A stretch of DNA of 45,769 nucleotides from Dehalococcoidia bacterium UBA3088 (GCA_002367275.1 DFBE01000066.1:1-45769), one strand, 5' to 3'; shown: positions 8,597-45,769, numbered from the stretch's first letter. Made by a program: numbers and translations. The notes: generated by a model not told the origin, from the letters alone.

Positions 8597-8645
8597 GACA
8601 AAGGTCGCAGACAGACAGTCAACTCCCATCTTAATATGATTACGG

Positions 8646-8867: not shown

Positions 8868-8970
8868 AGGCAGCATTTTCCTTTCCCTGCATCCCCAATG
8901 AGATAAAAGTCACATACAAGGATTATCTTTTTACCTAAAATAAGCTTGATTAGGAGAAGCGGAGGTAGCT

Positions 8971-9420
8971 ATGTATAGGTCTAACAGGAGATGGAAAGAG
9001 AAGGACGAGCTTTTTAGCCCCGCGTGGCTTGAGGAGCTTTTTAGCCTGCAGCCAGATGGTGAGCAAAGTCCCAAGCTGGATCCCCCCCTGCCTGAGGAAA
9101 CAAAGGACCCACAGCAGGAATACTGTGACCTTGTGCAAAGGACCCAGACCGATTTCATCAACTACAAGCATCGTGTGGAGCGGGAGAGGGAAGAACAGAC
9201 AAAGTTTGCCCACCGGGAACTCATCCTGAAGCTTCTTCCTGTTCTGGATGACTTGGAGCGTGCCCTGGGAGACATACCCAGAGAGGTGGCCGACGACAAT
9301 TGGGTGAAAGGCGTAAGTTTAATCCAGCGGAAATTGACAGCCATTCTGGAGGAAGAGGGTGTAAACAGGATCGATGCCCAAGGGGTGGAGGTCACACTGA
9401 AGGGTCGGAAGGCACGGTAG
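8971..9420 (+). CDS. grpE: GrpE nucleotide-exchange factor, C-terminally truncated
   Basis: Long-helix and four-helix-bundle region recognisable (DFINYKHRVEREREE...LLPVLDDLERAL...WVKGVSLIQRKL). The ORF ends right after RIDAQG, where the beta-domain (FDPxxHEA...) should begin. The next gene starts 35 nt later. Confidence 0.7.
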   Translation: MYRSNRRWKEKDELFSPAWLEELFSLQPDGEQSPKLDPPLPEETKDPQQEYCDLVQRTQTDFINYKHRVEREREEQTKFAHRELILKLLPVLDDLERALGDIPREVADDNWVKGVSLIQRKLTAILEEEGVNRIDAQGVEVTLKGRKAR

Positions 9421-9454
9421 AAGGCGAATTCCGGGAGGTATAAGAGCGGTAACC

Positions 9455-10432
9455 ATGGAATACAAGGACTATTATAAGACCATGGGCGTGGATAAGAACG
9501 CCACTCAAGAGGAAATAAAGAAGGCCTATCGTCGGATGGCACGGCAGTACCATCCTGATGTCAACCCGGGTAACAAGGAGACTGAAGCCAGGTTCAAAGA
9601 AATAAATGAGGCCTACGAGGTTCTGGGCAATGCCGAGAAACGCCAGAAGTATGACCAACTCGGAGCTAACTGGGAGCGATATGATGAGTGGCAGCAGGCC
9701 GGTGGTAAACCCCAAAACCAACCCTTTAATGGGAGCCAGTTTTGGTTCCGGCCTAATGGAAGCCGGGAGGCTCACTATCGAACCATGACCGAGGAAGAAA
9801 TGCAAGACCTCTTCGGACCGTCCGGTGGCTTTTCCGACCTCTTCTATACCTTCTTTGGCGCTCCCCAGAGCGAGGCTCGCAGGCAATATCGCCTCCTGCC
9901 TCAGAAAGGTGTGGATATGGAACAGGCGGTGGAGATAGCGCTGGAGGAGGCTTTTAACGGTACCGCCAGGATCATCGATATGAGCAATGGCAATGGTGCC
10001 ACCAAAACTATCGAGGCTAAAATTCCCCCGGGGGTGGAGGATGGATCGCGGGTCAGGCTCACCGGTCAGGGAGGATCGGGCATCGGGGGAGGTCCGGCAG
10101 GTGACCTTTACCTGGTCACAAAGGTTAAATCACATCCCATGTTTGAGCGAAAAGGGGATGATCTCTACGCCCAAATTTCGGTGCCACTGACGGTAGCAGT
10201 TTTGGGGGGCGAGGTTGACGTGCCTACCCTGAATAGCAGAGTGAAACTCAATATTCCGCCGGAGACGCAGAACGGAAAGGTCATCCGCCTTCGGGGTAAA
10301 GGCATGCCCAAGATTAAGCATCCCGAGAGCAAAGGACATTTATATGTCGAAGCCAAGGTGGTCCTGCCACAGAGGCTTTCAGATAGGGAGCGTGAGATAT
10401 TTCAGGAATTGGCTAAACTGAGGAAAAATTAG
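9455..10432 (+). CDS. DnaJ-class co-chaperone without zinc finger (CbpA-like, type II)
   Basis: J-domain DYYKTMGV...YHPDVN...KEINEAYEVLGNAEKRQKYDQ. No CxxCxGxG repeats. C-terminal substrate-binding beta domains are present. Confidence 0.88.
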   Translation: MEYKDYYKTMGVDKNATQEEIKKAYRRMARQYHPDVNPGNKETEARFKEINEAYEVLGNAEKRQKYDQLGANWERYDEWQQAGGKPQNQPFNGSQFWFRPNGSREAHYRTMTEEEMQDLFGPSGGFSDLFYTFFGAPQSEARRQYRLLPQKGVDMEQAVEIALEEAFNGTARIIDMSNGNGATKTIEAKIPPGVEDGSRVRLTGQGGSGIGGGPAGDLYLVTKVKSHPMFERKGDDLYAQISVPLTVAVLGGEVDVPTLNSRVKLNIPPETQNGKVIRLRGKGMPKIKHPESKGHLYVEAKVVLPQRLSDREREIFQELAKLRKN

Positions 10433-10481
10433 CATGTAGGCAGGCTTTACCCTTGCCCAAAACTAAACAAAGGAGTGTGAA

Positions 10482-11003
10482 ATGAAGGTTGAGGTCTATA
10501 CCACACCAACTTGCGGCTATTGCCACCAGGCCAAGAGATTTCTCTCTGAACGGGGAGTAAATTTTACTGAGCATGATGTCTCCCGTGATAGGGAAGCAGG
10601 CGAGGAAATGGTTCGTCGGACAGGGCAGATGGGTGTGCCGGTCATCATCATTGATGGTGAGGTAGTGGTGGGATTTGACCGCCCAGGGCTGGAGAGCCTG
10701 CTTGCCAAAAACGGTAGTGGGCAACATCCCCGCTTGGGGGTGAAGGTAGCTGATGCTAGCAAGGTAGCTCAGAAGTTTGGCCTTGCTCCAGTGTTCGGAG
10801 CGCTGGTGGGTAAGGTTGGATCTTCATCTCTAGGAGAGAAAGCAGGTCTCCGGCAAGGCGACATTATCACTGAGGTCAACTTACGGCCCATTCACAATGC
10901 AGAGGACCTGGAAAATGCCCTCTCAGCACTAACCGTGGGCAGCCGAGTGGTGATAATCTTCCTTAGAGGACAAGAGACCTTGAAATCCGAGATTGTCGCT
11001 TAG
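10482..11003 (+). CDS. Glutaredoxin-like (CGYC) protein fused to a PDZ domain
   Basis: N-terminal VEVYTTPTCGYCHQAKRFL...GVPVIIIDGEVVVGF (glutaredoxin/NrdH fold). C-terminal GEKAGLRQGDIITEVNLRPIHNAEDL (PDZ signature). Confidence 0.8.
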   Translation: MKVEVYTTPTCGYCHQAKRFLSERGVNFTEHDVSRDREAGEEMVRRTGQMGVPVIIIDGEVVVGFDRPGLESLLAKNGSGQHPRLGVKVADASKVAQKFGLAPVFGALVGKVGSSSLGEKAGLRQGDIITEVNLRPIHNAEDLENALSALTVGSRVVIIFLRGQETLKSEIVA

Positions 11004-11533
11004 CATATGGCCTAGAAAGAGCATATTCAGCCAGCAGAAGCATTGAGAGTTGAGTCATGCCAACCGCTACCCCCACAAGAGAGGTAACTTGTCTCTACCT
11101 GACCCCACAGAGCCAGGCGAGACTTCAGGGGCCGTTGACTGAGGCCCCAGCTTCTCCAAATCTTGTCTGGAGAGGCATTTTGCAGGAGGTTAATCCTGAC
11201 GCTGAGGATTTTACAGACTCAACGATTCCTGAGTCCAACCCTATATCTTCAGTTATTAAAGAGCAAAACTGTTTTCTCCCGAAGGAGTGCCTTAGCTCTA
11301 TTAGAAGTATACCACAAAAGGAGGCAATGGCGCATTCCTTCACCAGCACAAGGCTGGTGGTACCCTGCGCCCAATTTAATGGAAAAAGGGGGAATGCATT
11401 TGGCTAGCAAACGCATTGAGAGTAAAATCGAAGAAATGATTTCTAACATTGACCGTGTTCCGATGTATGACGAATTAGCAGATCAAGTACCGATAGAGTT
11501 GAGCAGTAGCAAAAAACCGGAGGTCAGATCCAG

Positions 11534-12379
11534 ATGAGAATACCTTGCAGTGCGGATGAAGTGCGAAGGCTCAGTCCTGAAGAGATGAGGGCTATCTTAG
11601 ACACAGATAAGCAGGGCGATTACATTCTTCTAGATGTGAGGCAGCCTGAGGAGTACGAAGCAGGATACATTCCCGGAGCTATACTTATTCCGCTGGGGGA
11701 ATTGGAGGCCAGGCAAGAAGAACTGGATCAGAGTAAGAAGATCATCGCTTACTGCCGCTCCGGGCATAGAAGCATGGCAGCAGCCATGACCTTGTGTGGT
11801 CTGGGATTCAAAGATATCCACCATCTTGAAGGTGGTATTATTAACTGGCACTATGAGACTATTCCTGGAATGCCTGAAGAGAGGCCTGAGTTAATTGCCA
11901 GGACAACTGATGTAAGGGATATTCTCATGCTGGCCATAAAACTGGAGAAGGATTCCTGGGATTTTTATATGGCAGCAAAAGACAAAGCTAGTCTACCCAG
12001 GGTTAGGGAAACGCTTCAGATGCTGGCTGATGTCGAAGATGACCATATGCAAAGGCTGTATGAGTGTACTGCCAATCTGGTCGGTGAGAAGGCACTTCCA
12101 CCTTTGGAGAAGCTTAAGCTAGAACTCAGGGTGGAACATATGGAAGGTGGCATCGAGATTAGCCCTGCCCTGGCCAAAGTGGAGGAATTCGCCGGTGAGA
12201 TGGAGGCGTTGGAGATAGCGTTGGAAAGGGAATTCATGTCGTATGACTTCTACAAGCGGTCATCAATGTTGGTGGGTAACCCGAATGTCAAAACCCTCCT
12301 TTATGAGTTAGCCCTGGAAGAACGGAATCATGCCGATACTCTGCTTAAGCGAGTGTCAGAAATTGTTCAGAAACGATAA
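11534..12379 (+). CDS. Rhodanese domain fused to a diiron ferritin-like (rubrerythrin-type) domain
   Basis: LLDVRQPEEYEAGYIPGA...YCRSGHRS rhodanese loop. This is followed by two helix pairs with E...ExxH (KLEKDS...VEDDHMQ; LEREF...EERNHAD). Confidence 0.8.
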   Translation: MRIPCSADEVRRLSPEEMRAILDTDKQGDYILLDVRQPEEYEAGYIPGAILIPLGELEARQEELDQSKKIIAYCRSGHRSMAAAMTLCGLGFKDIHHLEGGIINWHYETIPGMPEERPELIARTTDVRDILMLAIKLEKDSWDFYMAAKDKASLPRVRETLQMLADVEDDHMQRLYECTANLVGEKALPPLEKLKLELRVEHMEGGIEISPALAKVEEFAGEMEALEIALEREFMSYDFYKRSSMLVGNPNVKTLLYELALEERNHADTLLKRVSEIVQKR

Positions 12380-12398
12380 CTGAGAAGGGAGGATTCGG

Positions 12399-13769
12399 GT
12401 GATTTTTGAGCGCATAAAATCAGAGGGAATAGCCCACAATTCTTACTTAATCGGGTCGGAGAACGATGCTGCTGTGATCGACCCGCGGCGCGATTGCCAG
12501 ATTTACGTCGACCTGGCACAGCAGAAGGGCTTGAAAATTAAGTATATCTTCGAGACCCACCGTAATGAAGACTATGTCATAGGCTCCATAGAACTGAACC
12601 ATATAACCGGAGCCGAGATATACCACGGGCCTGGGCTGGACTGGAAGTACGGTAACACGTTGAAAGACGGACGGGAATTCCGGATCGGCAATCTCAGGTT
12701 AACTGCTATCCATACCCCAGGACACACCGGTGAGAGCATGTCCTATGCTGTAGCCGATCTCTCCTCAGGTGAAGTTACAGTAATGGCATTTACCGGGGAT
12801 GCGCTATTCGTGGGTGATGTTGGGCGAACTGATTTTTATGGTCCCCAGGAGACGCCCAGGTTGGCCTCAAATCTGTATGACAGCATCTTCCATAAGCTCC
12901 TTCCCCTGGGGGATGGGGTTATTCTGTGTCCAGCCCATGGTGCAGGCTCGGTATGTGGCATGAACATTGCCGACCGAGATGAAAGTACCCTGGGCATAGA
13001 AAGGGCGCAAAATCCGATGCTCCAGAAGAGTAGAGAGGAGTTTATACAATACAAGGTGGCTGAAGAGTTAGAAAGGGCTCCTTACTTTCGCCAGATGGAG
13101 AAGTATAATCTGGAAGGCCCTCCCCTCCTGAAGCATCTGCCTATTCCAGCTCCGCTCACTCCTAGCGAGTTCAGTAAGGAGATGGAGCGGGGGACGGTGG
13201 TCGTTGATACCAATCTGCCGGCCGCCTTTGGTGGTGCCCACATCAAATGTTCCTACAGCGTTTGGCTGGAAGGATTACCTGTTTTCGCGGGGTGGGTATT
13301 ATCTTACGATAAGCCCATCCTACTGGTGTTAGAGGACCAGTCTCATCTGGAAAAGGCCGTCCGATACCTGATCCGTGCTGGCTACGATCAGATTTCGGGC
13401 TACCTCAAAGACGGCATGGAGAGCTGGTACAATGCTGGACTTCCTACTGAGCACCTGCAACTTTTGACGGTGCAGGAGTTAAAATCCAGAGTGGATCACG
13501 GCGATGAATTGACTATATTGGATGATAGAGGGCAGGATGAGTGGAATGAAGGACACATAAAAGGTGCTAAGCATATATATGTGGGACATCTTAAGGAGAG
13601 AATGACTGAAATTCCCCAGGACAAACCAGTAGCATTAGTCTGCAATGTGGGGCATCGCGCCAGCCTTGGTGCCAGCATTCTGCTCCGAGAAGGCTGCCAG
13701 GAGGTATACAATGTCTTGGGAAGTATGACAGCCTGGGAGTCTGCTGGTTATCCTATCTCCACTGAATAG
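12399..13769 (+). CDS. Metallo-beta-lactamase-fold protein with two C-terminal rhodanese domains (CstB-like persulfide dioxygenase-sulfurtransferase architecture)
   Basis: GTG start with GGGAGG Shine-Dalgarno. HTPGHTGES, GDALFVGDVGRTDF and CPAHGAGSVCG are MBL motifs. The middle rhodanese-like domain has no Cys loop. The terminal rhodanese carries VCNVGHRA. Confidence 0.82.
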   Translation: MIFERIKSEGIAHNSYLIGSENDAAVIDPRRDCQIYVDLAQQKGLKIKYIFETHRNEDYVIGSIELNHITGAEIYHGPGLDWKYGNTLKDGREFRIGNLRLTAIHTPGHTGESMSYAVADLSSGEVTVMAFTGDALFVGDVGRTDFYGPQETPRLASNLYDSIFHKLLPLGDGVILCPAHGAGSVCGMNIADRDESTLGIERAQNPMLQKSREEFIQYKVAEELERAPYFRQMEKYNLEGPPLLKHLPIPAPLTPSEFSKEMERGTVVVDTNLPAAFGGAHIKCSYSVWLEGLPVFAGWVLSYDKPILLVLEDQSHLEKAVRYLIRAGYDQISGYLKDGMESWYNAGLPTEHLQLLTVQELKSRVDHGDELTILDDRGQDEWNEGHIKGAKHIYVGHLKERMTEIPQDKPVALVCNVGHRASLGASILLREGCQEVYNVLGSMTAWESAGYPISTE

Positions 13770-13950
13770 CAAGCTACGGAGATAAAAGTGTTGTTATAAC
13801 CAAGTGCTCTTCGTACAAGATCATCAAATGGCCTTACAGGAGAGCCAGCCTGCAAGGAAGGTTTCAAGCAACCCGATTGCTGTAGGGTAGCTGAGGTTTA
13901 TAAAGTGTGATCGCTGGTAGCCAGGTTTAGCCAGCGATAGGAGGTGCTAA

Positions 13951-15480
13951 ATGGGGTTAAATTTCAACCTGATGGTGGGGGGTGAAGCGGGGCAAGGAGT
14001 ACAATCGATAGGCTTTATCCTGGCCAAAGCTTTTACCCGAGGAGGTTTTCATGTCTTTGCTGATCAAGATTATGAGTCTAGGGTAAGAGGTGGCCACAAC
14101 TTCTTTAGGGTCCGCATCAGCAACAGCAAGTTAGAGGCCATTTCCGAGTCAGTTGATATTTTGCTTGCACTAAATCAAGAAAGCGTAGATCTTCATCGTG
14201 GGAGATTGGCCCGGGAAGGGATGATGGTCTTTGATCAAGGGAGGGTTAAAGATATCAGCGGCGACAATTTCTTTGCTGTGCCCATGGCGGATCTGGCTGA
14301 GGAAAAGGTTGGTAATAAGCTGATGGCTAACACAGTCGCCCTGGGTGTGGTCTTGAGGTTAGTGGGCTATGATTTTAAAATCGCTGCCGATGTCTTGCGA
14401 GAGCAGTTTGGCGCTGTTGGAGCAGGCGAGGATAATGTCAGGGCGGCAGCGGCGGGCTATGAATACGCCACGAGCAACCTTAAGGGAAGCTTGGGGTGGA
14501 GCCTTAACCCCATAGATAGCAGAAAAAGAATGCTGATAAATGGCAACGAGGCTATAGCTTTAGGAGCTGTGGCTGCCGGGTGCACGTTCATGGCTGCCTA
14601 CCCTATGACTCCCTCCACATCTATAATGGAATACATGGCGGACAAGTCCAGGGAGACAGGCTTGGTGGTCATACAACCCGAGGATGAGATCGCAGCCATA
14701 AATATGGTGATCGGAGCTGCCTTTGCCGGAGCACGAGCCATGACTGCTACCTCAGGAGGCGGATTCTGTCTCATGGTGGAGGGGTTAGGGTTAGCCGGCA
14801 TGACAGAGACACCCATTGTGGTGGTAGTTGGGCAGCGTCCTGGCCCGGCTATTGGTCTACCCACAAGGACAGAGCAGAGTGATCTTCAGTTTGCTATTTA
14901 TGCCTCCCACGGAGAGTTTCCGCGAGCTGTTTTGGCCCCGGCCAATATTGAACATGCCTTCTGGCTAACGGTTAAGGCTTTCAACCTTGCCGAGAAATAT
15001 CAGTTACCTGTCATACTGCTAACTGACCAGCATCTGGCCAGCTCTTATTCTACAGTGGACAGATTTGACCTCTCGAGGGTGAGCATCGATAGAGGGCTAC
15101 TAGTTTCGGAGAAGGACATAGTAAGTATAGGGAAATATCGGAGACATCAGATAACACCATCGGGCATATCCCCCAGGTCTCTGCCTCTTCAGGGGAATGT
15201 TTTAGTGGTAACCGATGCTGATGAACACAATGAGGAGGGACACCTCATCGAGGATGCATCTACCCGAACTCGAATGATGTTGAAACGCTTACACAAAGTA
15301 GAGGGGTTGCAAGCTGAGATCAACCCGCCCCGAATCTACGGGCCGCACAGGGCAGAGACTGCTCTTATGGGATGGGGCAGCACCTACGGAGCGCTGAAAG
15401 AGGCAGTGGATATCTTTACAGGGCGAGGGCTTGGATGTAAACCTCCTACACCTGAGCGAAATCTGGCCCTTTCCGGCTAA
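13951..15480 (+). CDS. korA: 2-oxoacid:ferredoxin oxidoreductase alpha subunit (gamma-alpha fused), main part; reading frame broken near 15415
   Basis: GGEAGQGVQSIG...DYESRVRGGHNF (gamma domain). YPMTPST and GFCLMVEGLGLAGMTETPIVV (alpha domain). The last ~20 residues of this ORF look non-native. Confidence 0.85.
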   Translation: MGLNFNLMVGGEAGQGVQSIGFILAKAFTRGGFHVFADQDYESRVRGGHNFFRVRISNSKLEAISESVDILLALNQESVDLHRGRLAREGMMVFDQGRVKDISGDNFFAVPMADLAEEKVGNKLMANTVALGVVLRLVGYDFKIAADVLREQFGAVGAGEDNVRAAAAGYEYATSNLKGSLGWSLNPIDSRKRMLINGNEAIALGAVAAGCTFMAAYPMTPSTSIMEYMADKSRETGLVVIQPEDEIAAINMVIGAAFAGARAMTATSGGGFCLMVEGLGLAGMTETPIVVVVGQRPGPAIGLPTRTEQSDLQFAIYASHGEFPRAVLAPANIEHAFWLTVKAFNLAEKYQLPVILLTDQHLASSYSTVDRFDLSRVSIDRGLLVSEKDIVSIGKYRRHQITPSGISPRSLPLQGNVLVVTDADEHNEEGHLIEDASTRTRMMLKRLHKVEGLQAEINPPRIYGPHRAETALMGWGSTYGALKEAVDIFTGRGLGCKPPTPERNLALSG

Positions 15481-15667
15481 GACAGTATGCGCCCTGCTTG
15501 ATGGGGTTAAGCAGAGCTTTGTGGTAGAGAATAATGCTACTGGGCAGCTAGCTCGTCTCATTCAGTCAGAGACAGGAAGGAGAGTTACGGGGAATATTCT
15601 AAAATTTGATGGGCGACCTTTCACCCCTGCTCTCATCATTGAAGAGTTTAAAAGAGAGGTGAGTTGA
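15431..15667 (+). CDS. korA: C-terminal fragment of the same korA gene, in the +1 frame
   Basis: LDVNLLHLSEIWPFP...FVVENNATGQLARLI...KFDGRPF is the canonical KorA C-terminal domain. It is contiguous with the upstream ORF if one T of the TTT run at 15415-15417 is removed. Confidence 0.8.
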   Translation: MDVNLLHLSEIWPFPAKTVCALLDGVKQSFVVENNATGQLARLIQSETGRRVTGNILKFDGRPFTPALIIEEFKREVS

Positions 15668-16521
15668 TCATGGTAAATATGGATGACTATACTGGAGGTA
15701 AACCAGCTTGGTGTCCGGGATGCGGCAATTTTGGTATTCTGGCTGCACTTAAGCAGGCTCTGGTTATACTCAATATCGAGCCGCGTCAGGTGTTAATGGT
15801 CTCTGGTATTGGACAGGCGGGCAAACTGCCCCACTATACCAAGGGTAACGTGCTTAACGTCCTTCACGGTCGGGCACTCCCGGCAGCCATTGGGGCTAAC
15901 ATGGTTAATCCTGAGCTTATAGTAATTGCAGTTGGTGGTGATGGCGATGGGTATGCAGAGGGCGGAAATCACTTTCTCAACGCTGCACGGCGCAACCACG
16001 ACATCACCTATCTAGTACACGACAATCAGATCTACAGTCTGACTAAGGGTCAAGCATCCCCCACCAGCGATTTTGGCTTTGTTAGCAAGACCACGCCTCA
16101 AGGAGCAGATATGCCGCTAAATCCGATTGCTTTGACTATAGCTGCTGGAGGTACTTTTGTTGCCCGAGGTTTTGCTGGAGACATACATCATCTAGCACAG
16201 CTTATCGTGCAGGGTATTCGACATCGCGGATTTGCCTTAATTGATGTGCTCCAGCCCTGTGTTTCCTTCAACCGTAAAAATACCTACGACTGGTATAGAG
16301 AAAGGGTATACAAACTGGAAGATGAAAAATATGACCCCGCAAACAGGCTGACTGCCTTTGAAAAAGCCCAAGAGTGGGGAGATAGGATACCTATTGGGGT
16401 GGTATATAATGAGGAAAGGATCACATATGAGGAAAGGATTCCTGCCTTGAGAGAAGGTCCTTTAGCCTGGCGTAAGCTTGACCCACTGAAAGCAGAAAGG
16501 TTGCTAGATGAGTTTACGTAA
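15664..16521 (+). CDS. korB: 2-oxoacid:ferredoxin oxidoreductase beta subunit (TPP-binding)
   Basis: WCPGCGNFGIL and GGDGDGYAEGGNHF TPP motif. The ATG at 15670 is a likely alternative start. Confidence 0.9.
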   Translation: MIMVNMDDYTGGKPAWCPGCGNFGILAALKQALVILNIEPRQVLMVSGIGQAGKLPHYTKGNVLNVLHGRALPAAIGANMVNPELIVIAVGGDGDGYAEGGNHFLNAARRNHDITYLVHDNQIYSLTKGQASPTSDFGFVSKTTPQGADMPLNPIALTIAAGGTFVARGFAGDIHHLAQLIVQGIRHRGFALIDVLQPCVSFNRKNTYDWYRERVYKLEDEKYDPANRLTAFEKAQEWGDRIPIGVVYNEERITYEERIPALREGPLAWRKLDPLKAERLLDEFT

Positions 16522-16535
16522 CCGGAGGTGATAGG

Positions 16536-17060
16536 ATGAGCTTAACTGGAAAACGGATTGTCATTCTGGTGGAAGAGGACTTCGAGGACTCTGAGCTTAC
16601 TGAACCAATGAGGGCAACGAAAGAGGCGGGAGCAGAAGTGGTTGTCGTGGGTAGTGGCTCAAAGAATACCTACCGGGGCAAAAAGAGGAAGGCAAAGGTT
16701 AGCGCCGATACCACTGCTAATAAGGTTGAGGCCGATAGTTTTGATGCTGTCATAATCCCCGGTGGATATGCTCCAGATAAAATGCGCCTTCACCAGAGCA
16801 TGGTAGACTTAGTTAAGAAGGCACATGATCAGGGTAAGGTTGTGGCTGCCATTTGCCATGGGCCCCAGCTTCTTATCTCGGCAAATATGGTGAGAGGTCG
16901 CAGGGTTACTTCCTGGGCTTCAGTAGCGGTGGACCTTAAGAATGCTGGTGCTATCTGGATTGATAAGCCAGTGATAAGAGATGGGAACCTTATCACGTCG
17001 CGAAAACCAGCTGACCTGGACGAATTTAACCAGGAGATAATCAAAGCTCTCGGCGGCTAG
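16536..17060 (+). CDS. DJ-1/PfpI family protein (type 1 glutamine amidotransferase-like)
   Basis: Nucleophile elbow AAICHGPQLL and VIIPGGYAP. GGAGGTG Shine-Dalgarno. Confidence 0.88.
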   Translation: MSLTGKRIVILVEEDFEDSELTEPMRATKEAGAEVVVVGSGSKNTYRGKKRKAKVSADTTANKVEADSFDAVIIPGGYAPDKMRLHQSMVDLVKKAHDQGKVVAAICHGPQLLISANMVRGRRVTSWASVAVDLKNAGAIWIDKPVIRDGNLITSRKPADLDEFNQEIIKALGG

Positions 17061-19490: not shown

Positions 19491-19570
19491 CAATTGGGGT
19501 ACCAGTCCAGCTTTGAGCAGGGCTTTATCCAAAGCTAGCATACTAGGAAGATGGACACTGCAAGCAGCAC

Positions 19571-20330
19571 GTGGTGGTCAACCTGGGGTGCAAAGACCTT
19601 CTGGCTCCTCACCTGGACAGCCTGGTACGTTTGTTGGGAGGTGGAAGGAATGACAGCGGTTGGATCAGAGCCAGCCAGGTGAACCCCCATGAGGCAACGT
19701 GTTGGTGCCCGGTGCTGGCAGTGAGGGCTCTATGGCAGGAGCTAGGGTTGGATGATATTCTGGATGGCTGTGAAGGACAGAAGCGGACACAGCGCATACC
19801 CCTGGCAGACCGAGCTTTTGTTCTGGCCGCCGGTCGGCTGTGCTGTCCAAGTAGTGGGCATGGGTTGGCTAGAGAGAGACTATGTATGTGATCGCCAGGG
19901 GAGGCGTTGGTTACCCCGGTGGGAGCAGCGTGATAGAGTGCAACGGGAGGGGATCTACTAGATCATCAATAAGGCAGTGGGTCCGATGAGCAAGAGTGCC
20001 CGGCAAAAACCGGAGGAGGGGAGGAAGCACCTAAGGCGCCGGAGAAGATCGGGGCGGCGGCAGATCGAATTCTCTCCTCTCACCATGGTCAACGCTACTA
20101 TGAACATCCCAACCTGGGTGAGGAGAAGGCCTATGAAGACAAATACCTGATCCAGACAGAGGAGCAAAGGCTCACACCGGTAGAAGCAGTGGAAGCTTAC
20201 AAGGAACTGAGTGAAGTAGAGAGGACCTTTCGCTGCCTAAAGGATGTCATCAAGATGCATCCTATCTACCACCGTAGCAATCGTAACACAATAGACAAAA
20301 TCCAGCAGCCAGATGGATGACTACTGCTTT
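19571..20330 (+). pseudogene. IS1634/IS4-family transposase remnant; multiple frameshifts and the DDE core deleted
   Basis: N-terminal-like ALWQELGLDDILD...PLADRAFVLAAGRLC is in one frame. C-terminal-like KYLIQTEEQRLTPVEAVEAYKELSEVERTFRCLKDVIKMHPIYHR is in another. Only ~0.8 kb remains of an expected ~1.6 kb. Confidence 0.65.
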
Positions 20331-20353
20331 GCTACCTGGAAAGTAAAGTAAGC

Positions 20354-20653
20354 TTACCTTAAATGTATAGTTGCGCGGGTCCTCCCAAAACCTGAAATTA
20401 AGGAAACTTCAAGAGAGGAAGCCAAGGGATTAAAAAACCAATTCTCACGCTTACCATTGTTTGCCTTTCTTGCTCCATTACGCAGCACCTCAAGAGCTCC
20501 TTCCCTGGCCATTCTCGCCCATCGATAGAATTGGGTATGGGCAATCTGATGGCGTCGACATACCTCACTTACCGTAGCTCCTGATTGTCTCCCATTCACC
20601 ACTATCTTCAGTTTCTGCTCAGCACTCATGCGTCTACCTTGATTTCCCTCCAT
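20354..20653 (-). pseudogene. IS3-family transposase orfA (HTH) remnant
   Basis: MSAEQKLKIV...SGATVSEVCRRHQIAHTQFYRWAR is the IS3 OrfA helix-turn-helix. The sequence degenerates afterwards and there is no orfB. Confidence 0.65.
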
Positions 20654-20784
20654 GTTGTTCCCCCCTTTGCCTGGTTATTTATTATACTTTCACCAGGGGG
20701 TGTATCATTTTTTCTCAAAGCTAGTTGTCCGACTTCCATTGAAGCACAACACAAAACATCTAATTTTAAAGCATTAGGGCTTCT

Positions 20785-21034
20785 TTGGTCCTGCTTGTCG
20801 ATCCCGCTGGCGGGAATCGAAGCCTGTGGTCAAAGGAAGAGGGCGCTGCTTACATCAACCAGGGGATTACTGGATCAGCTAGTGGCAGCTACCGTTTCTC
20901 ATACTCTGAGAAGCACGCTGGAGATGCTGGGCAGGCTGGGTCTCCTCATCGTTGATGAACTGGGTTACATGCCCATAGACACTCAGAAAGGCGACCTCTC
21001 CTTCCAACGGTCCCAACCATCGCATCCAGGATAA
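20785..21034 (+). pseudogene. IS21-family IstB helper ATPase fragment
   Basis: LAGIEACGQRKRALLTSTRGLLDQL...LGLLIVDELGYMPIDTQKGDLSFQ matches the IstB region around Walker B. No Walker A, no C-terminus and no istA. Confidence 0.6.
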
Positions 21035-21229
21035 GCTAGAAAGTGTAAAGAAAAGAGATTGAACAAACGAGCTTAGTGTGATATCCTATATCCCAGTTTC
21101 TGGTTCTGGGTGGGTCACTTTTGGAGTAACTTTTGTGGAGAATTTAGATGAGGTGAAACAAGTGATAGCTACTACCTGGAGTGAACTCTCCAGGAGGATA
21201 AGCTATGCCAAGGGCTGGTCTGAATAGCT

Positions 21230-22093
21230 GTGAGAATGAAAGAGTCTGATTTACTCCAAAATGAGAGGATAGAATATTCCCTGAGGCCTCATCCACTATC
21301 CTTCTTTGGAAGGTATCTGATAGCAGCATTAGTCTTTGTTTGGTCAATCCTCGCTTACTATTTTCTCAAATGGACCGGTACTTATGATCTCTTTCCTGAA
21401 GATTTTGAGCAAATGTCCCTTTACCTTTGGACGTGGACAGGTGGAATTCTTGCTCTAGGCGTGATAATCGGTGTCCTCACCATAGAATGGAAGTACTCCC
21501 TCTATTATCTTGTCCTACTGCTTGTTGGCTGGATAATTATGCTGCGTTGGCAGATATTAGACCTTCGCTTTGTTTTCGCCTATTCATTCCTTGGCACGCT
21601 AATAGGAATAGTCTCAACCGAGATGGTCAGAAGGAGTCACCAGTTCTTCCTGACCAACCGAAGGTTGTTGCTCCAGGGAGGGATATTCAACAAATTTGAA
21701 AGGGCTATATCCCATGATAACATCACTGATGTATCTGGCCGGCAATCGCTTATGGGAAGGGCTTTTAAATATGGCTCTCTCACTCCGATAACCGCATCTG
21801 GATTTGGCCTTGGTGCTGACCAGTCTGGTGCAGGTGGAGCAGTTGGTCCAAGTTCGAGGGTTGCTGGAATTCCTGTGCTGCGAAGGTTCTCGTATTTCTT
21901 TGGTGGAGGGAGGTCAAGACAAACACCCCGGACAAGATCCTACTACGAACTTTTCGGTGTCCACCCGTATGCTGAAGTGAGGAAGACATTCCTTGAAAAG
22001 GTCCGGGAATTTTCCAGGAGTTCTCAGGTCGAAAAGCAGGTGGAGATCCAGGAGCAGATCCTTGAAGAGCTCAGGAAGAGGGCCAATAAGTAA
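21230..22093 (+). CDS. Membrane protein with bacterial PH (bPH_2/YdbS-like) domain
   Basis: About four hydrophobic segments, then FFLTNRRLLLQGGIFNKFERAISHDNITDVSGRQSLMGRAFKYGSL. The ATG at 21236 is an alternative start. Confidence 0.7.
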   Translation: MRMKESDLLQNERIEYSLRPHPLSFFGRYLIAALVFVWSILAYYFLKWTGTYDLFPEDFEQMSLYLWTWTGGILALGVIIGVLTIEWKYSLYYLVLLLVGWIIMLRWQILDLRFVFAYSFLGTLIGIVSTEMVRRSHQFFLTNRRLLLQGGIFNKFERAISHDNITDVSGRQSLMGRAFKYGSLTPITASGFGLGADQSGAGGAVGPSSRVAGIPVLRRFSYFFGGGRSRQTPRTRSYYELFGVHPYAEVRKTFLEKVREFSRSSQVEKQVEIQEQILEELRKRANK

Positions 22094-33838: not shown

Positions 33839-34913
33839 TTAGAGACGGCTTGTGAGGTAGGCCTGTATGAGATCATCCAGTTCGCCATCCAGAACTCCTC
33901 CCGCATTCCTTATCTCTTTACCGGTGCGGTGGTCCTTCACCATCTTATAGGGCTGCAGGACATAACTTCTTATCTGGCTGCCAAAAGCGATAGGCATCTT
34001 CTGTCCTCTATACTGGGCTGCCTCTTTCTCTTTTCTCCTGAGTTCGAGGCTCAGGATCCGGGATTTCAGGATACGAAGTGCACTCTCCTTATTCTGATAT
34101 TGGGAACGCTCGCTCTGGCATACTGCTGAAATCCCTGTAGGAAGGTAGATCATGCGCACTGCGGAGCAGGTTTTCTGCATATGCTGACCCCCAGGTCCGC
34201 TGGATTTGAAAGTCTCTACCTTGAGATCCTTCTCTTCAATTCTCACCTCCACATCTTCTACTTGAGGTATAACCTCTATTGAGGCAAAAGAAGTATGGCG
34301 AGCATGATCAGCATCAAAGGGAGAGATACGAACCAGACGGTGAACTCCCTCCTCTCCTTTAAGGTATCCATAGACATATCTTCCTTTAACCTCGAATGTG
34401 ACGCTCTTTATCCCTACTTCCTCTCCAGGGAGTAGATTTACAACCTCCACTTTATATCCCTTTCTCTCGCAAAAGCGAAGGTACATCCGGAAAAGCATGT
34501 GGGCGAAATCGCAAGCCTCTACTCCTCCTGCCCCGGAGTGGATGGAGACGATGGCATCCCGTATATCATGCTTTCCATTCAAGAGAAGCTCGAAGGAAAT
34601 TCTACCCAGCTTTCGGGAAATATCCTCTATCTCAGATAGTATCTCACTGCTGAGTAAGCCGTCCTCTTCTCCCAAGGGTAAAAGCTCTTCCACGTCTTCT
34701 GCTCTTTGCTTCAGTTCCTCCCAGGTTCTTATCTCCTCCCTTATTCCCTCCATTTCGCGCATAATGCTCCTTGTTTTCTCCTTATCATGCCATAGGTAAG
34801 AGGAAGAGACCTCCTTTTCTAACTCTGAAAGCCTTCTTTTTCTACCCTCAAGGTCAAAGATGCTCCATTATCTCGTATATTCTGCGCTTGAGACTTAGTA
34901 CCCTTTCTTCCAT
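33839..34913 (-). CDS. prfB: Peptide chain release factor 2, requiring a programmed +1 frameshift
   Basis: ORF0 is MEERVLSLKRRIYEIMEHL, then CTT TGA C at 34853-34859. The +1 frame continues DLEGRKRRLSELEKE... into the track ORF (33839..34762). SPF and GGQ motifs are present. Confidence 0.93.
34853..34866 (-). promoter_or_regulatory. prfB +1 frameshift site (GGAG cat CTT TGA C)
   Basis: Canonical CUU UGA C slippery/stop context with an SD-like GGAG 3 nt upstream on the minus strand. Confidence 0.85.
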
Positions 34914-40753: not shown

Positions 40754-41116
40754 ATGGGGAGTTTCTCTCTCAAAGGGAATATCGGATTTTATCTCTCTCT
40801 GGTAGGGGGTGCCATCCTCTTCTTTTTCGGGGTTATGTATGCGTCAAATCCAGTCGGCATATTAGAAAGCCTGGAGGAACAGGGCACCGATATCAGCGAT
40901 ATGACTGAGGAATCCATAAGGCAAATGGGCATGATAGGGGCAGTATGCGGGATAGCCACTCTGGGGGGAGGGCTACTTGCCCATTACAAAGAAGATAAGC
41001 TAAAGATGGGAGGCATAATGGCCATCGCCGGGTCGGCCATTGCTCTCCTATTTACAATGAATATTCTAGCCATAGTGGGCATAGTGGGGGGAGGCTTAAT
41101 CCTGGCTCGAAAGTAG
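40754..41116 (+). CDS. Small Gly-rich integral membrane protein, hypothetical
   Basis: About four hydrophobic segments. AGGAGGAAAATG region upstream. The 3' end overlaps the convergent gene by 21 nt. Confidence 0.55.
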   Translation: MGSFSLKGNIGFYLSLVGGAILFFFGVMYASNPVGILESLEEQGTDISDMTEESIRQMGMIGAVCGIATLGGGLLAHYKEDKLKMGGIMAIAGSAIALLFTMNILAIVGIVGGGLILARK

Positions 41117-42112
41117 GGCTTTCTTAAGCCGGGCATAGGTCTCATCCAACGCCTCTGACACCACCTTGGTGGAGGAGAGAATGGGCATATAGTTAGTATC
41201 TCCCTCCCAACGGGGGACGATGTGGGTGTGCAGATGACCTTCCACTCCCGCCCCGGCTACTCTACCCAAATTTACCCCCAGATTGAACCCTTGAGGAGAA
41301 AGGGCTGCTTTGATGACCTTCATTGCCTGAACTATCATATCCAGATGCTCTTCCCTCTCAGCTTTATCCAGCTCTTCTACATTTCCCACATGCCTTAGGG
41401 GAGCCACCATCAAATGGCCAGTGTTGTAGGGATAGGCGTTGAGCAAGCAAAAGTTAGTCTTTCCCCGTAGAAGGACATAGTTTTTTCCATCGTGAGCTTC
41501 TTGAGCCACCCGACACAAGAAGCAGCCCTCTTCCCGGGGAGAGAGGATATATTCCACTCTCCAGGGAGCCCAAAGGAAGGAGATCTTAGGTGGTGTGGGG
41601 ATATTCTGGGTATAGTACTTTATACGACAGCCAAACTCCACCCTCTCCAGCGTCTCATAAGCCTCCTCAAAGTCTTGACCTCCGCAGACGATCCCATGCC
41701 CCTTTATCAGACAGCCCTTGCTTTTCTTAAGGGCCCAAGCGGCATGACGGGCTAGCTCAGACGATCCTTCTTTCCCTTGGATTATGGGGGTAATTTCACC
41801 TTCAATATCTACCCCACCTTCATACATCGAGGAACAAACAATGGAGAAAGGAGGGTGAGCATGTATAATTGCCTGATAAGAAGTATTCTGATAGATCTCC
41901 CGGTGCATTTTGAGCTCAGAGGAAGCTTCCTTATCCATCTCATGCTTTCCGGATATAGGAAGAGCCATTATCTTTCCGGTGAGGTCATCCAATCTTGTCC
42001 CTGTTTTGGTAATAAATAGCTCATCACCCACCCTCTTACTGATGTTGCCAAAGGTGGCATGGGTAAACTCTTTTTCCACCACCTTCCTTCCGTAGTGGAT
42101 AATCTCATCCAT
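41096..42112 (-). CDS. Class II aldolase/adducin-family domain fused to a HIT-family (Ap4A phosphorylase-like) domain
   Basis: N-terminal half: THATFGNIS...IHAHPPF...IKGHGIVC. C-terminal half: WAPWRVEYI...CFLC...LLNAYPYNTGHLMVAP...GHLHTHIVPRWEGDTNYMP. The ATG at 42112 lies 2 nt after the HAD stop. The track ORF extends to 42181. Confidence 0.8.
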   Translation of the reverse strand: MDEIIHYGRKVVEKEFTHATFGNISKRVGDELFITKTGTRLDDLTGKIMALPISGKHEMDKEASSELKMHREIYQNTSYQAIIHAHPPFSIVCSSMYEGGVDIEGEITPIIQGKEGSSELARHAAWALKKSKGCLIKGHGIVCGGQDFEEAYETLERVEFGCRIKYYTQNIPTPPKISFLWAPWRVEYILSPREEGCFLCRVAQEAHDGKNYVLLRGKTNFCLLNAYPYNTGHLMVAPLRHVGNVEELDKAEREEHLDMIVQAMKVIKAALSPQGFNLGVNLGRVAGAGVEGHLHTHIVPRWEGDTNYMPILSSTKVVSEALDETYARLKKALLSSQD

Positions 42113-42737
42113 CAAGCTTTCCCTCAAGTTCCTCAAGGCTATGAAGGACAAATTCCCCTTCTTTAGCTCCTGTCCGGTCAAGGAAATAACATCTGATGCC
42201 TAAGTTCCGGGGGACATGAAAATCGAATTCAAGGTGATCCCCAATATGGATAAGTTCTTCGGGGTGAAGCTTAAGCCTCCTTAATATCTGGGTGTAAAAA
42301 GAACCTTCTTTTTTCACTATCCCGAAATCAGAAGGGGCAGAAAAGATGAAGGAGAAGTAGTTCCGTAGTTTATCCTGTTTCAGCTCAATTTCAATAAATT
42401 CTCTGGTCGCATTGGAGGCCAGGATAAGGTTGAATTTCTGCTTAAGGCGAGGGATTATCTCATAAACATCGGGGTAGAACTCTACCATGGGCTCATACTG
42501 GGATAGAAGTTTTTTCCATTCCCCGTTTAAGCCAAAACGGCGACACCAGTACTTGATGTCATACCATTCTACCCTTCCCTCACCTACCTTCTGGTACTCT
42601 TGCTCTACATAGCTTTGGGCCCTGGATATTTCTATACCGTATCGCTTCGCATAAATCCTGGGCATTCCCTCATGCCACACCTTATGGCTGAATTCAGAGC
42701 AAACCAGCGTTCCATCCAGGTCAAAGGAAATAATCAT
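42105..42737 (-). CDS. HAD-superfamily hydrolase
   Basis: MIISFDLDGTL (DxDxT motif I) and IHIGDHLEFD (motif IV). Confidence 0.82.
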   Translation of the reverse strand: MIISFDLDGTLVCSEFSHKVWHEGMPRIYAKRYGIEISRAQSYVEQEYQKVGEGRVEWYDIKYWCRRFGLNGEWKKLLSQYEPMVEFYPDVYEIIPRLKQKFNLILASNATREFIEIELKQDKLRNYFSFIFSAPSDFGIVKKEGSFYTQILRRLKLHPEELIHIGDHLEFDFHVPRNLGIRCYFLDRTGAKEGEFVLHSLEELEGKLDG

Positions 42738-43261
42738 TTGAGGCTAAGAATGGATATATTACGGTTAGTGTAGATGCATACGTCGGAGGCAATCTCCATG
42801 GATATGCGGGCGATATCCACCGCCCCCAGCTCGGAGTAGCCCAGAAGGGCCTTAGCTGCTGCCTGGGCATACCCTGCCCCGGAGCCAATGGCTATGGCAT
42901 CCCCATCAGGCTCGACCACCTCGCCTTCACCGGAGATGACTAACATATCGTCTGTGCTGGCCACGATGATCCAGGCCTCCAGGTGGCGAAGTATCCTATC
43001 GCTTCTCCATTCCTTCACCAGCTCCACGGCTGCCCGCCTCAACTTTCCCCCATTTTTCTCCACATAGTTTTCAAATTTATCAAACAGGGTGAGAGCATCT
43101 CCCACCGCTCCAGCAAACCCACAGATCACCTTCCCATTATACAGGGAACGCAGCTTGGAAGCCTTATGCTTCAGGACAGTATCCCCCATGGTTATCTGGC
43201 CATCGCCAGCTATGGCCACCTCTCCATTTCTTCTCACCGCAATTATGGTTGTTCCAGTCAA
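42734..43261 (-). CDS. hslV: HslV (ATP-dependent protease, proteasome-like subunit)
   Basis: TTIIAVRRNGEVAIAGDGQIT...GFAGAVGDALTL...GSGAGYAQAAA. TTG start after GAGGTAGGG. Confidence 0.88.
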   Translation of the reverse strand: MTGTTIIAVRRNGEVAIAGDGQITMGDTVLKHKASKLRSLYNGKVICGFAGAVGDALTLFDKFENYVEKNGGKLRRAAVELVKEWRSDRILRHLEAWIIVASTDDMLVISGEGEVVEPDGDAIAIGSGAGYAQAAAKALLGYSELGAVDIARISMEIASDVCIYTNRNISILSLK

Positions 43262-43328
43262 ATTCGCCCTACCTCGGAGATAAGAATAATAAGTCTATCT
43301 CCAAATTTTACCATATTTAACATCAGGG

Positions 43329-44171
43329 CTACTTAGGAAGGTGCTCTCGGTACATTGTCTCAAGATCTGATAGCTCCTCCACGGGTGTGGGTATCACCCG
43401 AGAGTCGTTTTCCATAATCTTTCGGGCAAGCTCTCTGAATATCTCTGCCTCCCTGGAATCGGGGGCGTACTCCAGTACCGCCTTTCCTTTTATCTCACAG
43501 GCTTGAATTGTGGGAGTACGGGGGACAAGCTCAATGAATTTACTCCCCAACCTTTGGGCAAACGCAGGTAGAACTTCCCTTTCCAGCCTTTCATCTCCAC
43601 CGCTATTGCCTATTACCCCCGAAAGCCCGGTATCTCCCCTCTTAGCCAGGCGCTGAATGGCTTTGGCAATGTTGTTGGCCGCATAGATGCTCATAAAGCC
43701 TCCTGAGCAGATAAGATAGATCTCCCGGGCAAATCCGTGACGGATGGGTTGAGCAAATCCACCGCAGACTACATCCCCCAGAACATCGTAGATGGCAATA
43801 TCTATACCATAAGTTTCAAAGGCCTTAAGGTCAGTAAGTATCTGAAGCGCAGTCAGCACTCCCCTCCCCGCACAGCCAATACCTGGTTCTGGACCCCCTG
43901 ATTCCACACAGCAAACCCCATTAGGGGCTTCAAATATGATGTCCGGAAGTGCGATGGCATATTCATCCTTACCCATCCGGAGCTTCTCCCGAAGTGTCTC
44001 CAGGACAGTGGTGATGAGTCGACCCCCGGCTAAAATCCGGGTGGAATCTCTCTTGGGGTCACATCCTACCTGCATCACTTTTAGTCCCCTCTCTTTTAAA
44101 GCCATGGATAGGTTTGAGGCAATGGTGCTTTTCCCTATTCCTCCTTTACCATATATAGCTATTTGTCTCAT
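43329..44171 (-). CDS. Nitrogenase iron protein-like ATPase (NifH/BchL/CfbC family)
   Basis: IAIYGKGGIGKST P-loop. CVESGGPEPGIGCAGRG and DVLGDVVCGGFAQP carry both [4Fe-4S] Cys ligands. ATG at 44171 follows GAGGTGGTGA, 1 nt after the upstream stop. The track ORF extends to 44228. Confidence 0.88.
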   Translation of the reverse strand: MRQIAIYGKGGIGKSTIASNLSMALKERGLKVMQVGCDPKRDSTRILAGGRLITTVLETLREKLRMGKDEYAIALPDIIFEAPNGVCCVESGGPEPGIGCAGRGVLTALQILTDLKAFETYGIDIAIYDVLGDVVCGGFAQPIRHGFAREIYLICSGGFMSIYAANNIAKAIQRLAKRGDTGLSGVIGNSGGDERLEREVLPAFAQRLGSKFIELVPRTPTIQACEIKGKAVLEYAPDSREAEIFRELARKIMENDSRVIPTPVEELSDLETMYREHLPK

Positions 44172-44172
44172 C

Positions 44173-45538
44173 TCACCACCTCGCCTTATATCTTCTTTCT
44201 TTGGAACGCCATCTGTCATTGAAGTCATTCTGGATAAGCTCCAGAAGGTTCAACATCCCGCCGTAGCCAAAATACTCCCGGTTCACCAGCCTGAACTGCC
44301 GCATCGGGCTTACAATTTCGAAGATGAGCGGTATTCCCAGCCCCTCAATAGCGTGCCTTTCCACATTACTTCCAAAGACCGCCTCTGGCCTTACTTCCTC
44401 CAGGCCCTCTCTTACCTTGTACACGTCGGCATTATATACTATCTTAGAACTGAGGCCGAGATCCTTTACTTCCCTTTCTAATATCTCCCGGGCATAGTTT
44501 TGAGAGGATCTAAGATAAATAAGCTCAGGGGTCATCTCTAGCTCCTCGAAGAGAAAGCGAACCAGGGGAATTCCGATAGTGGCATCAGAAACAACAGCCG
44601 CCGGCATCCGGTAGAGGAGACGCACCTCCAGCGACTCTCCGGTGATTCCCCATCCTTTGCACCGAAAGAGTATCCGCCACCATTCTTTCCCCCTCAGATA
44701 TGAGCCTTTGAGCCGCCTCCTGGGCATCAAATCTTTTCCCCAGCTCTGAGATCCAGCATCTGGTATTGGTCATCCCGATGGGTAGAGGAACTCCCTGGCA
44801 GACCTGCTCCACGTCAAATTCAGAGGAAAGCCAATCTGCCGCTTTCTTCCCCGCATCATGGGATAGAAGAAGGGAGGTTTCGGCGGAGGATATCTTTTCA
44901 AACTCACTGAGGGATGTCTTATGGGTGAGAGTAGCCACAACCTGAACCCCCAGCTTATGTAAGATTTGCTTCACCCAGGCCAGGTCACCCATCCAGGTAG
45001 GGTTGGCATTGGCGTGGGGGGCGATGAGGCAAACCGATCGGGGAACCTTCTTCTGACCACCCCGAGAAAGCTCTCTTAACATCGTATCCAGGGCGATATC
45101 TATGCCATCATATTGCGAGCCTTTATATCCCGCACATTCGATGGGGATGACCCTGAAGGGAACCTCAGTTTCTACATCCTGGCAAATACCCACAGTATCA
45201 TCCCCCACGATCTCTGGTCCACAGGCGGTGAGGACAAACAGAGCCTGGATGGGAAGTTCCTTTGCCTCCAGGATGGTGCGAGCTAAAAGCTCCTCTCCAC
45301 CGTGGACGATCTCATCCTCGCATAGCTTGGTACACAGCGTCTCGGTCCGAGTCCAATCAGCCTCCTGCTAGGGGAAGGCACCGTCAACAAGGTAGGCACA
45401 ACCCTGAGGAGCATGAGAAAGGACACCGCAATTCTCCACTCCCAGGACGGTCAGGGCCGCACCATGCAGAGCACAGCGAAGGTAAGGGTCAAAACACTTT
45501 TCGCCTTTCAGAACCTCTGATGTTATCTTAATCCCCAT
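44173..45538 (-). pseudogene. Nitrogenase component-1-like (NifD/NifE/NflD-type) gene, interrupted by an in-frame TAG (45368-45370) and a frameshift (within 44585-44730)
   Basis: Three track ORFs (45368..45562, 44585..45208, 44173..44730) join into one ~455-aa protein. HAPQGCAYL, FVLTACGPEIVGDD and IPIECAGYKG resemble the three P-cluster-type Cys motifs of NifD. The first two segments share a frame and are separated only by TAG. Confidence 0.75.
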
Positions 45539-45610
45539 TTTGGCTCCTCCTGCCTTTCTCATCCCGATGGTAAACTCTTTTCACTTTAAAACCCCTTCAT
45601 CTTTACAATT

Positions 45611-45769
45611 TTAAGCCAAATAGGTATCTGGCTCCTCCAGGTTCATCTTAAGCTCATTCAAAAATTCGATCGGCGTATTTGCCATCATCGCTCGGTGGTC
45701 AAAGAGGAGGGCTACGTTCATCATCTTTCTTACTACAACTTGCTCATCTTTGAAGTACTCCCCATTGTC
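45611..45769 (-). CDS. C-terminal end of a 2-oxoacid dehydrogenase E2-type acyltransferase-family protein (partial; continues off window)
   Basis: Minus-strand frame reads ...VVVRKMMNVALLFDHRAMMANTPIEFLNELKMNLEEPDTYLA-stop. The pattern resembles the E2 catalytic-domain terminus (DHR...F...L...LE.P). Only 52 codons are visible. Confidence 0.5.
   Translation of the reverse strand, partial: DNGEYFKDEQVVVRKMMNVALLFDHRAMMANTPIEFLNELKMNLEEPDTYLA

Follow-up and report, generated by a model that had tools for sequence, protein, structure and literature searches.

A nitrogenase-like gene pair in a Chloroflexota genome as the probable remnant of an nflDKH operon

Near one end of the 45,769-nt (45.8-kb) stretch of genomic DNA analysed here, referred to below as the window, a gene for a NifH-type protein lies directly downstream of sequence related to the catalytic subunits of nitrogenase. 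In the sequence-only reading the two were taken for a two-gene set, a NifH-type reductase with a single NifD/E-type subunit, and were assigned to an uncharacterised Group IV reductase, if it was functional at all. The questions raised by this locus are whether it encodes a working nitrogenase-like (NFL) enzyme, to which family it belongs, and how it came to have its present form.

The NifH-type gene and the disrupted gene upstream of it

The downstream gene, nflH (43329..44171, minus strand; stop codon TAG at 43329-43331), is intact and encodes a NifH-type ATPase/[4Fe-4S] reductase. Its 280-aa product starts at an ATG at 44171 and begins MRQIAIYGKGGIGKS; the open reading frame can be extended to 44228, and in the contigs retrieved from public sources it was called as 299 aa. 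The Pfam model Fer4_NifH (PF00142) matched the product with 321 bits (E 9e-96) over profile positions 1-264 of 271, and the P-loop GKGGIGKS, Switch I (CDPKRDST), Switch II, CVESGGPEPGIGCAGRG and DVLGDVVCGGFAQP can be read directly from the translation. Both cluster-ligand cysteines, at the positions of Cys97 and Cys132 of NifH, are present, and these motifs are conserved in the family alignment; the protein is a member of the NifH/BchL/CfbC-type Fe proteins, as the sequence-only reading had proposed from its P-loop and two cysteine motifs. It is 96.8% identical to the H protein of an intact sister operon (locus L001), retains every nucleotide-binding and cluster motif, and does not vary in sequence among the retrieved contigs of the window lineage. 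A promoter and terminator scan of 42600-45769 gave no signal above shuffled expectation, and a promoter of its own for nflH was not evident in that scan.

The upstream gene, which we term nflK (44173..45538, minus strand), ends with a TGA at 44173-44175, one base from the nflH start codon, in agreement with the spacing reported earlier. It was then regarded as a reading frame, but gene callers report in its place three ORF fragments in two frames, of 56/64, 202 and 144 aa. Two lesions separate them: an in-frame TAG nonsense codon (45368..45370, minus strand) and a TTT run with one extra T (44665..44667, minus strand), a +1 frameshift which is the sole intragenic indel relative to L001. The position of the TAG is occupied by TGG in L001, one transition away; close relatives have Trp there and some methanogens Ser. 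At the frameshift the two frames, ...GERMVADTL and RCKGWGITGESL..., meet exactly on homologue sequence. Of two candidate start codons, at 45562 and 45538, the latter has the better Shine-Dalgarno sequence, so that the start first given for the pair, 45562, is retained as a candidate but is not the better one.

Once repaired (~454 codons), the 454-aa translation matched Oxidored_nitro (PF00148) with 257 bits, covering positions 1-397 of the 399 in the profile, a full-length match that holds only after both the TAG and the frameshift have been repaired; in this repaired form the product belongs to the nitrogenase component-1 type oxidoreductases. Three cysteine motifs (HAPQGC, LTACGPEIVGDD and IECAGYKG), previously noted as resembling those of the P-cluster, do fall, in the alignment with AnfK, on its three P-cluster cysteine positions, and cysteines equivalent to beta-Cys70, 95 and 153 are retained. 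In a search of 5.8 billion proteins the nearest intact relative was P0001 (457 aa), 93% identical to the repaired translation; other homologues are found in Dehalococcoidia/Chloroflexota MAGs (78-83% identity) and in hundreds of methanogen proteins (~62%). Full-length alignments were obtained with beta-type subunits only (AnfK, VnfK, BchB). On the basis of these alignments and of gene order in the relatives described below, the gene is that of the K-position subunit, the second of the two in the catalytic component, and not of the single D/E-type subunit suggested earlier; by the state of its reading frame it is dead at this locus. An assignment to D or K from structure was dropped, as the AlphaFold model of K was poor (low confidence, pLDDT 62) and Foldseek matched alpha and beta chains equally, all matches being NifDK, VnfDK, AnfDK, MarDK, NifEN or BchNB chains with TM scores of about 0.55-0.62.

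Intact relatives and family placement

The sister locus L001 encodes two Oxidored_nitro proteins of 468 and 457 aa followed by a NifH protein of 279 aa, hslV and a HAD hydrolase gene. The same D-K-H order was found in L002-L007, six contigs of a Dehalococcoidia/Chloroflexota MAG lineage, in Methanocella paludicola and Methanosarcina, and in nine further Chloroflexota MAGs. Seven of these nine also carry an intact nifB-like gene (open frames of 276-333 codons with a CNIQCNFC motif), the contigs of the other two (L017 and L018) ending before its position. The nifB-like gene of the L003/L007 lineage is frameshifted, and its CX3CX2C motif no longer has the first Cys (KYNIQCNFC); the L003 copy scores 169 bits on the NifB model. 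In L001 the gene is absent. Typical sizes in the relatives are ~470 aa for nflD (NifD/NifE-like) and ~455 aa for nflK. Their NflD is of the alpha type, with 162 bits for NifE, 137 for the nitrogenase alpha-subunit model, 116 for Clostridium pasteurianum NifD and 107 for MarD; it keeps the alpha-Cys62, 88 and 275 positions and has Ser at alpha-154, and both subunits contain several additional invariant cysteines. Since in every intact relative H is preceded by two paralogous component-1 genes, a "single D" arrangement is not what these proteins derive from: judged by comparison of these loci, the full ancestral unit is most simply read as nflD-nflK-nflH, with a nifB-like gene added in most Chloroflexota, and the two-gene H/D-type set of the sequence-only reading does not hold.

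Across the Chloroflexota loci, conserved neighbours are limited to D, K, H and B. Differing methyltransferases are found near the methanogen loci, and a gene resembling the C-terminal domain of squalene-hopene cyclase lies near L015/L016; a substrate clue from conserved neighbours was sought and dropped, as the neighbours vary among loci.

Methanogens are known to hold further nitrogenase-like proteins without an assigned function, and earlier work noted a variety of NifEN-like pairs in which the ligand set is partial (PMC3464626). A 2026 review (PMC13474568) equates Group IV-A with Nfa, IV-B with CfbCD, IV-C with Mar and IV-F with Isr, and lists Groups IV-D, IV-E and VI as uncharacterised. 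No curated NCBIfam family was reached by the repaired nflK, for which the best of the following models was BchB (116 bits; NifE 95, CfbD 27). A true nitrogenase (Nif/Vnf/Anf) was rejected with 338 bits for nifH against a cut-off of 394, 45-116 bits for nifD/nifK against 427-654, and no nifEN or nifB in the window. DPOR/COR (Group V) fell equally short, both for the reductase (BchL 212 vs 345, BchX 177 vs 331) and for component 1 (BchB 116 vs 490, BchN 46 vs 420, BchZ 28 vs 529). For CfbCD, the repaired nflK scored 26.8 bits on the CfbD model (TIGR03282, cut-off 268.4) and the H protein 336 on that of CfbC (NF033200, cut-off 402). Taken with the relatives, these scores place the window family in an uncharacterised Group IV NFL clade, as far as profile and alignment comparisons can assign it. 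The superfamily and group proposed before are thereby upheld, whereas the architecture then attached to them is not.

The closest counterparts are the NFL sets of methanogens (Methanocella paludicola SANAE, Methanosarcina) and of Chloroflexota, which are of the same family (K, D and H are 62-73% identical), have the D-K-H order of the window's ancestor, and share with the window their invariant cysteines and, at the C terminus, the RWRSKERRYKARW motif; unlike them, the window copy has no nflD, and its nflK is a pseudogene. Among characterised systems, MarBHDK (Group IV-C; PDB 9FMG, 9D9U) is like the window family in its H2 + D2K2 plan and its NifB-type radical SAM gene, and also in its cysteines at P-cluster positions, the relatives' D having a Cys at the NifD Cys275 position; a Mar chain also gave the best Foldseek E-value for the low-confidence K model. 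On the other hand, identity to the Rhodospirillum rubrum MarD/MarK chains is ~20-22% (70-107 bits), which at the level of pairwise comparison argues against orthology; the gene order is BHDK in Mar and DKHB here, and D has Ser at the alpha-Cys154 position. No sulfur-salvage genes were found near the locus, and Mar appears to be a distant relative only. The Mar, Isr and Nfa "BHDK" sets do resemble the ancestral nflDKH plus nifB-like unit, but the radical SAM (NifB-like) gene that such sets require is absent from both the window and L001.

CfbCD shares with the window a NifH-type reductase, and differs in that CfbD is a single homomeric subunit while the ancestral core of the window family would have had two paralogous ones; component-1 proteins of the family score 27-42 bits on the CfbD model, against a cut-off of 268. 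NifEN/NifDK are alike in their P-cluster-type cysteines and in that NifE is the best curated model for the relatives' D, yet the scores lie far under the equivalog cut-offs of 427-874 bits, nifEN is absent, and in the NifD alignment of the relatives' D the alpha-His442 region is unaligned.

The upstream junction, the missing partners and the reproducibility of the lesions

The window and the sister locus were compared by blastn, in which L001:2669-5936 aligned with 45523-42265 of the window at 94.5% identity, with nflH, hslV and HAD in synteny and no alignment upstream. A global DNA alignment with L001:1-2700 had been uninformative, as nflK was misaligned onto the paralogous nflD. Similarity to the sister locus thus breaks at 45523..45524, eight codons into nflK, and nflD is absent upstream. 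On the far side of the breakpoint lies a leader with a Shine-Dalgarno sequence (45547..45593, minus strand), a copy of the leader of the neighbouring E2-like ORF: its 47 nt match, at 95.7%, the region upstream of a 210-aa E2-like ORF in L025. The start of the nflK fragment is now driven by this duplicated leader. Beyond it, the 3' tail of a stand-alone ORF for a 2-oxoacid_dh (E2 catalytic) domain (Pfam 2-oxoacid_dh) occupies 45611..45769 on the minus strand. Similarity to E2 within the window ends at 45751; L026-L028 diverge at the same point, their contigs ending 80-250 nt beyond, and the whole 210-aa ORF is present in L025, L029 and L032. This tail, together with HslV, the HAD hydrolase and an Aldolase_II+HIT fusion, makes up the flanks just as they were first described.

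With NflD as the tblastn query, the sole match in the 45.8-kb window was the paralogous nflK; no nflD or NifB-like sequence was found in the window or in the 3 kb further upstream on L025, where a K- or B-type partner had been suggested as worth looking for beyond 45769. Pfam scans of the window's other sizeable ORFs likewise revealed no further Oxidored_nitro or NifB-like sequence, which bears out the earlier remark that no nitrogenase-type partner genes are visible. Relatives of NflD with >88% identity came from small JGI contigs only; none came from NCBI, ENA or Logan, where the window lineage is represented. The locus therefore lacks a full set of catalytic subunits plus reductase in intact frames, and the reservation attached to its function in the sequence-only reading was justified, with nflK dead and nflD absent.

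Both lesions and the junction recur outside this assembly. The 64-aa nflK fragment is carried by at least 11 contigs from about seven samples (exact-protein look-up), and exact look-ups also returned the 56/64-aa and 144-aa fragments from several public sources. Eight of the 11 contigs were retrieved; they stem from JGI, ENA and Logan assemblies, and about seven samples and at least three assembly pipelines are represented. All eight have the same architecture (E2 tail, 64/202/144-aa fragments, H, hslV, HAD, aldolase-HIT). Their identity to the window is 99.9-100%, without a single difference across 43329-45562, and three of them extend 1-3 kb through the upstream E2 junction. As the same junction, stop and frameshift are present on contigs of about seven samples put together by several assemblers, the TAG, the extra T and the junction are not sequencing or assembly errors. 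The sequence-only reading had also allowed that the gene might prove to be a dead pseudogene in all related genomes; it is dead in every contig of the window lineage, but intact in the 94.5% sister and in more distant relatives.

The age of the decay and the competing explanations

Relative to L001, dN/dS was 0.17 for nflK, 0.12 for nflH, 0.055 for hslV and 0.24 for HAD. When changes were polarised with an outgroup, synonymous/nonsynonymous counts for nflK were 16/12 in the window lineage and 21/13 in the L001 lineage, and those for nflH 10/6 and 10/3, respectively, the difference between 6 and 3 not being significant. Neither the pairwise nor the polarised counts indicated relaxed selection on nflK or nflH. 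For nflK this means that inactivation was recent relative to the ~5% divergence; the counts date the decay and do not support it. The dN/dS of nflK is not raised, and by itself would fit a functional gene; its inactivation rests on the lesions and the missing partner.

All in all, we consider it very probable that the locus is what remains of an nflDKH(B) operon that has eroded recently, in an uncultured member of the Chloroflexota probably related to Dehalococcoidia, and that nflH is the sole survivor. The RF2 protein of the window has its best named matches, at no more than 56-57% identity, in Chloroflexota and Dehalococcoidia MAGs, which makes the host a deep Chloroflexota lineage that has been sampled poorly. 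By homology, the ancestral enzyme would have had a homodimeric H2 reductase, its two subunits bridged by a [4Fe-4S] cluster, that hydrolysed MgATP and passed electrons to a D2K2 core; in this core a P-cluster-like site would have lain where D and K meet, and D would probably have carried a large cluster derived from NifB. A rearrangement may then have removed nflD and set the E2-like ORF with its duplicated leader against codon 8 of nflK, while the TGG to TAG change and the 1-nt insertion could have been acquired afterwards or have already been carried; downstream of nflH the window lineage has no nifB-like gene. In the absence of D and K, nflH would have no cognate electron acceptor at this locus, and the enzyme would be non-functional there. 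We infer that the direction of change was loss, and that nflH is a relic that has not yet decayed. Intact copies of nflD, nflK or nifB could lie elsewhere in the genome, MAGs being incomplete and the view taken here being that of the window locus. A protein-guided scan of genome contigs yielded relatives of at most 82% identity, and two exact-pattern scans of metagenome contigs, one spanning the junction and the other within a conserved part of nflK, gave no match. nflH shows no relaxed selection and all its motifs are intact, which runs against the relic reading, and "relic" rather than "retained" is our interpretation.

The main alternative explanation for these features is that nflH has been kept by selection after the death of nflK and the loss of nflD and now serves another acceptor, either another component-1-like protein or cluster maturation or insertion, as NifH does for NifEN and the P-cluster. 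The gene is indeed fully intact, close to the H of the intact operon, equipped with its catalytic motifs and unchanged in all contigs of its lineage, where 10 synonymous changes stand beside 6 nonsynonymous ones. Since pseudogenisation was recent, however, an intact nflH is expected by chance and is uninformative about selection; no partner lies within 45.8 kb, no promoter of its own is evident, and the nonsynonymous changes number 6 against 3 in the sister, if not significantly so. We regard such retention as unlikely, and the same holds for the specific role it would imply, that of an ATP-driven protein acting by itself on an unrelated acceptor, as a low-potential reductase or as a factor for cluster insertion. 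A sequencing or assembly artefact, with nflK truly intact and nflD missing through a chimeric join, would account for a frameshift in a short homopolymer (TTT) and for the several contigs that end near the upstream junction. It is made highly improbable by the identical TAG, extra T and E2 junction in all eight retrieved contigs (of 11), by the three that span the junction, and by the stop-creating substitution, which is atypical of assembly error.

Full-length NflK might also be restored by recoding, with the TAG decoded as pyrrolysine or read through and a programmed +1 slip on CUU-U, to give a two-component enzyme with H. The extra T does produce CTT T, which bears a superficial resemblance to the slip site of prfB, and a genuine programmed frameshift of the prfB kind occurs in the window at about 34859. 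This slip site, though, has no stop codon after it, the sister lineage has neither the TAG nor the extra T, the relatives' Trp codon is the TGG from which the TAG is one transition removed, and the D partner would still be missing; as TAG is used as an ordinary stop more often here than either other codon (17 of the window's 41 genes) and also closes nflH, recoding is not credible and its probability is minute. Least probable of all, to the point of being negligible, is that the locus encodes a true single-subunit H/D reductase, of the CfbCD type or another. The window does have one component-1-type gene beside H, and that H scores almost alike on the CfbC and NifH models (336 and 338 bits); the CfbC score is nevertheless under its cut-off, CfbD reaches 27 of 268 bits, the window gene is disrupted, and the intact relatives all have two paralogous component-1 genes. 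The CfbCD-like reading had in fact already been refuted by the relatives' architecture and the HMM scores.

If the locus is the eroded remnant we favour, a nifH-like gene next to an Oxidored_nitro match in a MAG may be counted as "nitrogenase-like", or as potential for diazotrophy, even though nothing but a dead remnant is present. The relatives in which the genes are intact (L001-type, other Chloroflexota and methanogens) belong to a large uncharacterised NFL clade, which is a better target for biochemistry than the window itself. Set side by side, close Chloroflexota lineages form a natural decay series, from DKHB intact, through B dead and B absent, to D absent, K dead and H alone; this suggests that the NifB-like maturase is lost first and the Fe protein last.

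Divergence and decay of the NFL cluster among relatives

In the identity matrices, in which locus L003 of a Dehalococcoidia MAG lineage was compared with the Chloroflexota relative L013 and with the sister locus L001, the nitrogenase-like (NFL) cluster of L003 was found to have two different nearest neighbors. Its D and K genes are closest to those of L001 (88% and 82%, respectively), and its H gene and nifB-like relic are closest to those of L013 (85% and 89%). By these identities the L003 cluster is a mosaic, and the pattern is suggestive of intra-operon recombination among Chloroflexota lineages.

The nifB-like gene located downstream of nflH in this lineage (L003:4993-5604; L007:5965-6832) is a pseudogene. 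A Tyr replaces the first Cys of the radical SAM motif CX3CX2C, and a frameshift lies past about residue 200; an identical 203-aa product was called on five of the six contigs of the lineage. The nflD, nflK, and nflH genes beside this dead gene are still intact. In two other Dehalococcoidia MAGs, nflH and the nifB-like gene are separated by an additional gene whose product resembles the C-terminal domain of squalene-hopene cyclase (L015:12144-13280; L016:12179-13234).

The NflH proteins of the window (43329-44171, minus strand) and of L001 carry a Gly at about residue 187, in the 'G(V/I)ICNS' motif, a position occupied by Cys in all other aligned members. This substitution is older than the split between the window and L001 lineages.

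The E2 junction and mobile-element relics

Comparison of the contigs belonging to the window's own lineage revealed two variants upstream of the nflK remnant within the population. Three contigs (L025, L029, and L032) carry a whole, 210-aa stand-alone ORF of the E2 catalytic domain; in the window variant, similarity to E2 is cut at position 45751 by unrelated sequence (window 45751-45769; L026:1-250, L027, and L028). The L026-L028 contigs end 80-250 nt past this position, and the cut similarity together with these nearby contig ends is suggestive of a repeat or a mobile element.

Relics of mobile elements are found within about 1.7 kb elsewhere in the window (about 19500-21230, plus strand). 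The sole ORF of at least 120 aa in this region is a truncated, IstB_IS21-like fragment (20585-21034); the region also contains sequence similar to the C-terminus of a transposase (...YKELSEVERTFRCLKDVIKMHPIYHR), with a stop at its end.

Other genes in the window

A gene fusing Aldolase_II to a HIT / ATP adenylyltransferase-like domain (41096-42181, minus strand) showed no evidence of a tie to the NFL genes. The top NCBIfam match of its Aldolase_II part is PRK08660 'aldolase' (156 bits), as compared to just 42-63 for the MtnB models. The fusion gene shares 77 nt with the HAD hydrolase gene in an overlap, and its position beside hslV is kept in every contig of the window lineage.

Genes for oxidative-stress defense and sulfur transfer are densely clustered at positions 1-17060, including peroxiredoxin, ferritin, catalase, rubrerythrin, several rhodanese-domain proteins, a CoA-disulfide-reductase-like Pyr_redox+rhodanese fusion, glutaredoxin-PDZ, and DJ-1/PfpI. 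The presence of catalase is unexpected in a presumed anaerobe that formerly carried an oxygen-sensitive NFL enzyme.

The listed ORF of prfB (release factor 2; 33839-34907, minus strand) lacks its N-terminus because of a programmed +1 frameshift of the canonical type, with the slip site at about 34859: ORF0 (MEERVLSLKRRIYEIMEHL) is followed by CTT TGA C and then by the +1 frame, DLEGRKRRL....
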